In this document: positions 38,661-38,960 of the stretch, one piece after another
Layout: every line of letters starts with the position of its first letter
Numbering within the stretch: position 1 is the first letter of the stretch
Virus record (IMG/VR): IMGVR_UViG_2802429248_000002
DNA: 41,518 bases
DNA from: a virus
Taxonomy: Duplodnaviria > Heunggongvirae > Uroviricota > Caudoviricetes
Reading direction: 5' to 3' (one strand)
Made by a program: the position numbers and the translations under genes
The notes under the pieces: generated by a model
Databases searched by the model: none
Told to the model about the DNA's origin: nothing
The model's input: only the letters and a program-made list of their open reading frames with translations

Positions 38661-38960
38661 GTGAGAAAGTTAAGCCGACTTGAAAAATATCACATGAACA
38701 AGGTTTCAATGCGCAGCCCTTCAAAGGTTGTTGCCGTTACTCCTGCAGCGATAGAGATCGAAAAACGCGCAATTGAAAGAGAGAAAAAAGGGCAGTTCCG
38801 CATTGCCGCCCACCTTTGGCTTCAGTGTATGGATGTTGCTTCTGGTGATGTTGAGCGTGCAAGGATCGCGGTTCGCAGGGACCAATGTATCACAAAAGGT
38901 AACGGCCTTCGCCGTGGCGACTATAGCGGCATAGGATGTTGTGGGGTGGTTTATGACTAA
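38661..38960 (+). CDS. PerC-like transcriptional activator family protein (putative)
   Basis: GTG start with GAGGG upstream (alternative ATG at 38694). Segment AIEIEKRAIEREKKGQFRIAAHLWLQCMDVA resembles the Pch/PerC core (..LE.KGLWRRAA..WL..) from memory. Confidence 0.45.
   Translation: MRKLSRLEKYHMNKVSMRSPSKVVAVTPAAIEIEKRAIEREKKGQFRIAAHLWLQCMDVASGDVERARIAVRRDQCITKGNGLRRGDYSGIGCCGVVYD

Follow-up and report, generated by a model that had tools for sequence, protein, structure and literature searches.

A PerC-Family Protein Encoded in the Early Recombination Operon of a Uetakevirus Prophage

The PerC-Like Gene and Its Family

The gene considered here lies at positions 38661..38960, on the plus strand, of the viral record IMGVR_UViG_2802429248_000002, a DNA stretch of 41,518 nucleotides which is called the window in its full length, and encodes, from a GTG start to a TAA stop, a protein of 99 amino acids (aa) that is assigned by its sequence to the PerC family (PF06069). 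The window is classified as a phiV10/epsilon15-like prophage of the genus Uetakevirus, temperate podoviruses, with vB_EcoP_PAS61 as a phage of 98% identity and phiV10, TL-2011b, and ZX5 as further close relatives. Comparison of prophages from several host genera identifies the PerC-like gene as a core, syntenic component of this phage lineage; the gene is translationally coupled to both its neighbours and is located in a recombination/excision operon. On the basis of structural modelling and of analogy with better-known relatives, its product has an even chance of being a small helical regulator, made after infection or induction, that would alter transcription through contact with a nucleoid-associated or regulatory protein of the host.

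The open reading frame (ORF) 38661-38960 is a real coding gene: in comparison with four orthologues from other genera (59–70% identity), the substitutions on codon positions 1, 2, and 3 are 104, 79, and 219, respectively. An ORF on the minus strand at 38721-38969 was rejected as a gene, since in its frame the substitutions fall mostly on position 1. The GC content of the PerC-like gene is 48.7% and that of the phage 48.8%.

The start codon differs among public records, which give a product of 99 aa in PAS61, of 88 aa in phiV10 (ATG 38694; YP_512289.2), and of 83 aa in the NCBI PGAP annotation (ATG 38709; WP_001341620.1). In the orthologues an ATG aligns with the GTG at 38661, behind a conserved GAAGG/AGAGG ribosome-binding site; the equivalent in the window is the Shine-Dalgarno-like GAGAGGG at 38645..38651 (plus strand), 9 nt 5' of the GTG. 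In an alignment of 29 sequences Y10 and H11 are conserved in at least 90%, while the alternative starts, M12 and M17, lack conservation. Moreover, the GTG overlaps the stop of an upstream 38-aa ORF (GTGA), and stop/start overlaps of this kind are a typical sign of translational coupling. The start, which the initial annotation had left uncertain, is thus supported by the orthologous ATGs, the ribosome-binding site, and the conservation of Y10 and H11: the alignment indicates that GTG 38661 is the correct start and the 99-aa form the conserved one, and that the phiV10 and PGAP starts are too late, with loss of the conserved N-terminal helix. As a consequence, clones made from the public annotations with the late starts (83 and 88 aa) would carry a truncated protein.

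The Pfam PerC model is matched with 30.1 bits against a gathering score of 22.6 (E 6e-7), residues 35-80 of the protein aligning with model positions 5-50 of 90, and PHROG 868 is matched over the full length (E 6.5e-62). The PerC-family core that had been proposed from the family signature is therefore confirmed by an HMM search with a score above the Pfam threshold, the proposal having named the lack of a significant hit as its refutation. PF06069 is also matched, at E ≤ 0.01, by 27 of the 29 aligned homologues of the subfamily. By BLASTP, the protein shares 40% identity over 60 aa with PerC of enteropathogenic Escherichia coli (EPEC; plasmid pMAR2 of strain E2348/69; pairwise E 2e-10) and 40% over 40 residues with PchA of E. 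coli O157:H7 Sakai (E 1e-6), whose gene was located on the Sakai chromosome by locus tag; the identity with EcCIMP1_025, a protein of a phage-inducible chromosomal island (PICI), is 36% over 44 aa (E 1e-7). In a joint alignment of the window subfamily with PerC, PchA, EcCIMP1_025, and Yersinia members, the invariant residues are A37, E41, G44, A49, W53, R66, R73, and C76; all eight are present in the window protein, which keeps the core pattern A-x3-E-x2-G-x4-A-x3-W ... R ... R-x2-C. The subfamily profile, searched against 1.84 billion representative proteins, gave only 66 matches at E ≤ 1e-3, and the short distant matches that were classified are all above the Pfam PerC threshold, so the relationship to PerC is reciprocal. 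For a distant match of 104 aa, the look-up of its cluster yielded no names.

The match to PerC does not extend to the full length: model positions 51-90 are unaligned and nothing in the window protein corresponds to the C-terminal FRxYK region of PerC and PchA. A tblastn search of plasmids with the window protein did not reach perC, and a sensitive blastn search of E. coli genomes with perC DNA returned perC itself only. The PerC assignment is already public, since phiV10p34 is described by similarity to PF06069 and PGAP names the product "PerC family transcriptional regulator"; the records of O157 typing phages 9 and 10 have it as "PerC transcriptional activator".

Architecture and Predicted Structure of the Protein

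The protein is organised in three parts. The PerC/ANR-type core (residues 34-80; 38760..38900, plus strand) is made of three predicted helices that carry the eight invariant residues. It is preceded by an N-terminal extension (residues 1-33; 38661..38759, plus strand) with a conserved LEKYH motif, which is specific to the subfamily and absent from PerC and Pch, and is followed by a C-terminal tail (residues 81-99; 38901..38957, plus strand) ending in GVVYD, also subfamily-specific, which replaces the C-terminal half of PerC and Pch. Within the subfamily alignment of 29 sequences nine residues are invariant across genera, and the invariant positions of the tail are Y88, G95, V96, and Y98. The N-terminal extension is less constrained than the core; in fact, within codons 2-16, 8 changed codons are synonymous and 30 non-synonymous.

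The AlphaFold2 model, built on the 29-sequence alignment, has a mean predicted local distance difference test (pLDDT) score of 73.5 (block means of 81-89 in the stretch of residues 31-80), and contains helices only, at residues 6-14, 28-42, 46-59, and 63-80; the tail is predicted to be disordered, with pLDDT < 50 for residues 90-99. No sequence relative of the protein was found in the PDB. Foldseek gave no significant match (best E 0.43); its top neighbours were MIT and TPR three-helix peptide-binding modules, with no DNA-binding fold among the best of them, and Pfam likewise gives a weak MIT match. These observations fit, without proving it, a TPR-like hairpin that would bind proteins. Three long proteins, P0130 (923 aa), P0140 (428 aa), and P0172 (465 aa), match the subfamily profile through the core in 5-11 stretches, which is the pattern of a TPR-like repeat; P0130 has no informative Pfam match.

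Operon Context and Expected Expression

The PerC-like gene overlaps its neighbours on both sides, with GTGA upstream and ATGACTAA downstream, and is translationally coupled to both. The upstream neighbour is the 38-aa ORF (38548..38664, plus strand), a predicted membrane protein (PHROG 17484, E 1.4e-26) annotated as such in phiV10, whose start in turn overlaps the stop of the preceding AlpA gene (ATGA). The downstream neighbour encodes an MT-A70 adenine DNA methyltransferase (38953..39603, plus strand; Pfam MT-A70 E 6.1e-22, PADLOC MTase_II E 5.9e-77), whose ATG lies inside the end of the PerC-like gene, so that the two share 8 bases.

The operon begins just past the gene of a CI-like helix-turn-helix (HTH) repressor (35405..35989, plus strand; PHROG 8, 12107, and 4; "putative repressor" in PAS61), which is followed by an intrinsic terminator (36010..36029, plus strand) with an 8-bp stem containing 6 GC pairs and then a T run. 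Beyond the terminator, a promoter-like TTGACA-17-AATTAT (36080..36108, plus strand; 10 of 12 consensus matches) heads the operon; on each side of it lies an exact TTACC-N5-GGTAA palindrome (36047-36061 and 36108-36122), found by pattern search. Two small plus-strand ORFs then precede the genes of a RecE-like nuclease (36593..37414, plus strand) and of RecT (37411..38292, plus strand), which overlap by 4 bases and are recognised by PHROG 412 and 561 and Pfam RecT; these are followed by an AlpA-family excisionase/regulator gene (38342..38551, plus strand; Pfam Phage_AlpA 24.8 bits against 21; PHROG 66), the 38-aa ORF, the PerC-like gene, the methylase gene, and, as the last gene of the operon, that of a NinI-like serine/threonine phosphatase (39600..40259, plus strand; Pfam Metallophos; PHROG 246). 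A P4-type tyrosine integrase gene (40262..41518, minus strand; PHROG 1, E 3.5e-87) is convergent with the operon, and guaA lies beyond it in lysogens. On the other side of the repressor are the replication genes, O-like at 33838-34653 and P-like at 33056-33856, both on the minus strand. Because replication is encoded on the minus strand past the repressor and the PerC operon runs from the repressor towards the integrase, this operon is the counterpart of the early-left operon of lambda; the "early-right operon" to which the initial annotation had attributed the gene is an error.

The two palindromes that bracket the promoter-like site are probably operators of the repressor, and we infer that repressor control keeps the operon silent in the lysogen. 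In ZX5, a phage 98% identical to the window, the repressor ORF21 abolishes lytic transcription (PMC9782041); gene order suggests that ORF21 is equivalent to the window repressor at 35405..35989. A consensus scan of the operon found no internal promoter-like site on the plus strand. Morons are autonomous units with a promoter and terminator of their own, often oppositely oriented, of deviating base composition, and expressed in the lysogen; the PerC-like gene, coupled on both sides and with the GC content of the phage, is not arranged like one. A scan for defence systems gave no link for the PerC-like protein.

Conservation across Genera

Divergent orthologues hold the same operon slot in prophages of Kosakonia, Klebsiella, Pluralibacter, and Enterobacter, where the gene order is HTH repressor, DUF3799 nuclease, RecT, AlpA, PerC-like, a variable slot (DUF1317, DUF1382, or others), adenine methylase, and integrase. 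In all chromosomal loci examined, from prophages of five genera, guaA lies beyond the integrase, and every orthologous locus that was looked at has the AlpA gene, the 38-aa ORF, and the PerC-like gene side by side. In several of these loci the 38-aa ORF is uncalled and the gap has an equal size.

Klebsiella, Enterobacter, Kosakonia, and Pluralibacter are not known to have a locus of enterocyte effacement (LEE), so that its activation cannot be the conserved function of the protein.

In E. coli, the 700 bases around the PerC-like gene are present in 556 of the 5426 complete genomes, about a tenth, and the prophage adjoins guaA in the genomes that bear the gene. IMG/VR contains 364 relatives. 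The scan of viral contigs for related loci returned copies with 98-99% identity only, and the diversity of context was for this reason judged from the divergent homologues. The hosts of this phage group include strains of the enterohaemorrhagic E. coli (EHEC) type, such as O157:H7 for phiV10 and O103:H25 for TL-2011b.

Relationship to Characterized Systems

The founding member of PF06069, PerC of EPEC (89 aa, plasmid pEAF/pMAR2), shares with the window protein the core with its eight invariant residues, a small size, a helical nature, and the absence of a known DNA-binding motif. However, PerC aligns with the Pfam model from end to end (143 bits, positions 1-90), while the window protein matches positions 5-50 with 30 bits, has 33 additional residues at the N-terminus, and ends with a different C-terminus. 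The genetic setting is also different: perC is plasmid-borne, follows an AraC-type activator gene in the perABC operon, and has a GC content of 34.8%, whereas the window gene belongs to a recombination operon and has the GC content of its phage.

PchA, PchB, and PchC of EHEC O157:H7 (104 aa) are, like the window protein, prophage-borne members of the PerC family, the 40% identity falling in the 40-residue centre of the core; their C-terminal region is absent from the window protein. The pchA gene stands alone, on the opposite strand, in the late region of the lambdoid prophage Sp4, with the Q/tRNA region on one side and the lysis genes on the other, adjoins insertion sequence elements, and has an upstream gap of 466 bases, an arrangement typical of a moron; in contrast, the window gene is coupled inside a podovirus early operon.

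EcCIMP1_025 is a PerC-family protein from another kind of mobile element, an E. coli PICI that carries AlpA-type genes too, and keeps the PerC-type C-terminal half which the window protein does not have. The effects of these proteins on LEE1 are not uniform: PerC and PchA/B/C activate it, EcCIMP1_025 represses it in Citrobacter rodentium, and the PerC-like genes of two PICIs are reported, on the authority of Porter 2005 as cited in the same paper, to have no effect (PMC11773190). Measured by identity, the window protein stands about as far from the activator PerC as from the repressor EcCIMP1_025.

Proteins of the ANR family (Aar, Cnr, Rnr) consist of three helices, have no DNA-binding domain, and bind AraC-type activators (AggR in the case of Aar) and H-NS, and in Aar the residues of the A-x3-E-x7-A-x3-W pattern are critical (PMC4983702, PMC5570504). 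This spacing is kept in the window protein at A37, E41, A49, and W53, the comparison with Aar being made by residue spacing and not by alignment. A three-helix core is predicted for the window protein as well, and no DNA-binding domain is recognised in it; ANRs, however, which have the conserved A, E, A, and W on one helical face, measure about 60 aa (<10 kDa) and accompany AraC-type activators, while the window protein has 99 aa, and no AraC-type gene was found among those ORFs of the stretch 30.9-41.5 kb that were examined. The ANR model NF033650 of NCBIfam is matched over the same core by canonical PerC with 18.2 bits and by EcCIMP1_025 with 31.1 bits; since the window protein also touches this model, the PerC and ANR cores look distantly related. 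Full ANR membership of the window protein was rejected, its score being under the curated cut-off.

Other families of phage PerC-like proteins, PHROGs 1324, 994, 10396, and 2608, match the same core with E values from 2e-6 to 9e-4. The orf40 product of phage SfV, a 162-aa protein of low identity, has the core at its C-terminal end and is encoded in a true early-right (replication/nin) operon; as in the window, the SfV gene directly abuts an adenine methylase gene.

Proposed Function

According to the proposed model, the PerC-like protein would be made together with the RecE-like nuclease, RecT, AlpA, the adenine methylase, and the phosphatase from one promoter, and since this promoter is probably shut off by the prophage repressor, the protein should appear mainly after infection or induction and not while the lysogen is quiescent. 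An all-helical fold is predicted for it, a TPR/MIT-like three-helix core with an N-terminal helix and a conserved C-terminal tail, and it would most likely act through protein contacts, by binding or displacing silencers of the H-NS/StpA/Hha type, or an activator. Its mechanism would be modelled on that of Pch, i.e., the relief of silencing by H-NS, StpA, and Hha, and more distantly on the ANR proteins. In particular, Pch activates LEE1 only where H-NS, StpA, and Hha silence it and has no known DNA-binding motif (PMC4764244). A precedent of function is gp5.5 of T7, in what PMC5570504 says of it a small early phage protein that neutralises H-NS by protein contact; the likeness is functional only, and no relationship of sequence or fold is claimed. 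In a LEE-positive host, any effect on the LEE would be a side effect of unpredictable sign.

Several points weigh against this reading. The promoter and the operators upstream of the operon are pattern matches, and an internal promoter with expression in lysogens may exist. AT-rich DNA is where Pch is reported to be located in vivo, and unpublished attempts mentioned by the same authors failed to co-precipitate it with H-NS (PMC4764244), so that even for the best-studied relatives the contact partner is at most a candidate. The GC content of the phage is mostly host-like, with few AT-rich tracts, so the need for anti-silencing is not obvious; the tracts at 3.0-6.0 kb, at about 26 kb, and in the immunity region could, rather weakly, be proposed as places where silencing matters. 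The structural model is of moderate confidence, and the fold matches carry little weight because three-helix bundles are too simple. Furthermore, the core of the window protein misses the cut-off of NF033650 (23.6 bits against 32; E 3.4e-5), and no experimental work on the Uetakevirus subfamily was found in the literature searched.

A broader view, speculative and rather doubtful in our opinion, is that the PerC/Pch activators and the ANR anti-activators are offshoots of one TPR-like superfamily native to the early operons of temperate phages and satellites, of which the Uetakevirus subfamily would be the native form. The native protein would be the product of a core early gene co-translated with AlpA and the adenine methylase, and its invariant GVVYD tail and N-terminal KYH helix would dock on a host silencer of the H-NS/StpA type or on a host regulator, reprogramming transcription during induction. 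If this were true, Pch would control the LEE through a domesticated phage function, and the abundant subfamily would be a simple system for solving the mechanism.

Alternative Explanations

The protein might instead be a regulator internal to the phage, with no host target, acting with AlpA or the integrase in excision or directly at phage promoters such as those marked by TTACC-N5-GGTAA. This palindrome is spread over the genome, with 15 copies in the window (15 bp, ≤1 mismatch) against 0.82 expected, AlpA and PerC-family genes co-occur on PICIs, and the constant adjacency of the AlpA gene, the 38-aa ORF, and the PerC-like gene agrees with a joint role. On the other hand, no AlpA gene adjoins pchA, perC, or SfV orf40, the predicted structure of the protein shows no DNA-binding fold, and the HTH repressor is the obvious binder of the 15-bp palindrome; an exclusively internal role is considered unlikely.

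A second alternative, which we regard as quite improbable, sees in the protein an ANR-like anti-activator or LEE repressor that would lower the expression of virulence genes by binding an AraC-type activator or H-NS, in the manner of Aar and EcCIMP1_025. It finds arguments in the ANR match, which is sub-threshold but non-random and exceeds that of canonical PerC, in the presence of the spacing of the Aar-critical residues, and in the identity with the LEE1 repressor EcCIMP1_025. However, the score remains under the 32-bit cut-off, the protein is longer than typical ANRs, no AraC-family gene occurs among the neighbours examined, and EcCIMP1_025 itself is far nearer to the ANR model.

The third alternative is that of the initial annotation, according to which the protein is an activator of the Pch/PerC type that would turn on virulence loci, ler/LEE1 or others, when the phage is lysogenic in pathogenic E. 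coli, so that the prophage could rewire the virulence regulation of its host. A true PerC core with all the invariant residues, 40% identical to the active activators PerC and PchA, and the occurrence of the phages of this group in EHEC-type strains speak for it. Nevertheless the probability of this role is small, and the virulence reading is unsupported: only half of the PerC model is matched, with the C-terminal half of PerC and Pch absent; the slot is conserved in genera that are not known to have the LEE; the family members variously activate, ignore, or repress; the promoter is probably repressor-controlled and the arrangement is unlike that of the pchA moron. In addition, lysogeny by ZX5 left the adherence and virulence of its host unchanged, a result that concerns the whole phage and not the PerC-like gene alone (PMC9782041) and a host that may lack the LEE.

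Finally, a non-functional chance ORF or decaying remnant, for which only the small size and the unusual GTG start could be invoked, is refuted for practical purposes by the conservation of the protein across genera with its nine invariant residues, the third-position bias, the conserved ribosome-binding site, and the Pfam match.

Implications for Annotation

The finding in itself adds little, since the gene was already annotated as PerC-family; its value is in the correction of the start, in a caution on the label, and in the subfamily as a system for studying the mechanism. Since the effects on LEE1 within the family range from activation through none to repression, the name "PerC transcriptional activator" does not predict virulence, and this caution bears on the risk flags given to therapeutic and biocontrol phages of the genus. 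A subfamily that is syntenic, abundant, and not restricted to pathogens is a convenient one in which to study how PerC and Pch work.

Other Features of the Operon and of the Phage Genome

In phiV10 one fused RecE-RecT gene of 1761 bases is annotated (locus 149-1909), while in the window and in most relatives the two genes are separate. AlpA has 69 aa in the window and 82 aa in every relative examined; the shortening is due to a clean in-frame deletion of 39 bases in the C-terminal tail (EFQGKKPPVQQRVY replaced by D), and the HTH domain is intact.

The methylase of one orthologous Kosakonia prophage belongs to the Dam family (locus 6819-7373) and replaces MT-A70 in the same operon. An adenine methylase gene directly adjoins the PerC-like gene here, where the two overlap by 8 bases, and likewise in SfV, an unrelated phage (orf40 then dam, locus 3210-4351); the two genes may be linked in function, or may simply share an accessory slot. 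The slot between methylase and integrase holds variable cargo: a NinI-like phosphatase in the window, in PAS61, and in E. coli PK6, a DUF1382 gene in phiV10 (locus 3256-3450), and other small ORFs in other genera. The phosphatase, annotated in PK6 and PAS61, matches NCBIfam PRK11439 with 266 bits, under the cut-off.

AT-rich tracts are found at 3000-6000 (35-43% GC) and at 25800-26400 (37% GC), the rest of the genome having roughly 50% GC; the first covers most of a minus-strand ORF of 918 aa (3377-6133). The immunity region is also AT-rich.

The 15-bp copies of TTACC-N5-GGTAA start at 3009, 6238, 7358, 7451, 24975, 25592, 28530, 28548, 32942, 33004, 34950, 35287, 35335, 36047, and 36108; those at 35287 and 35335 fall in the intergenic region between the repressor gene and the divergent gene. 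By eye, against the ORF list, the copies are mostly intergenic, and their distribution, which extends beyond the immunity region, looks like the operator set of the CI-like repressor or of another regulator.

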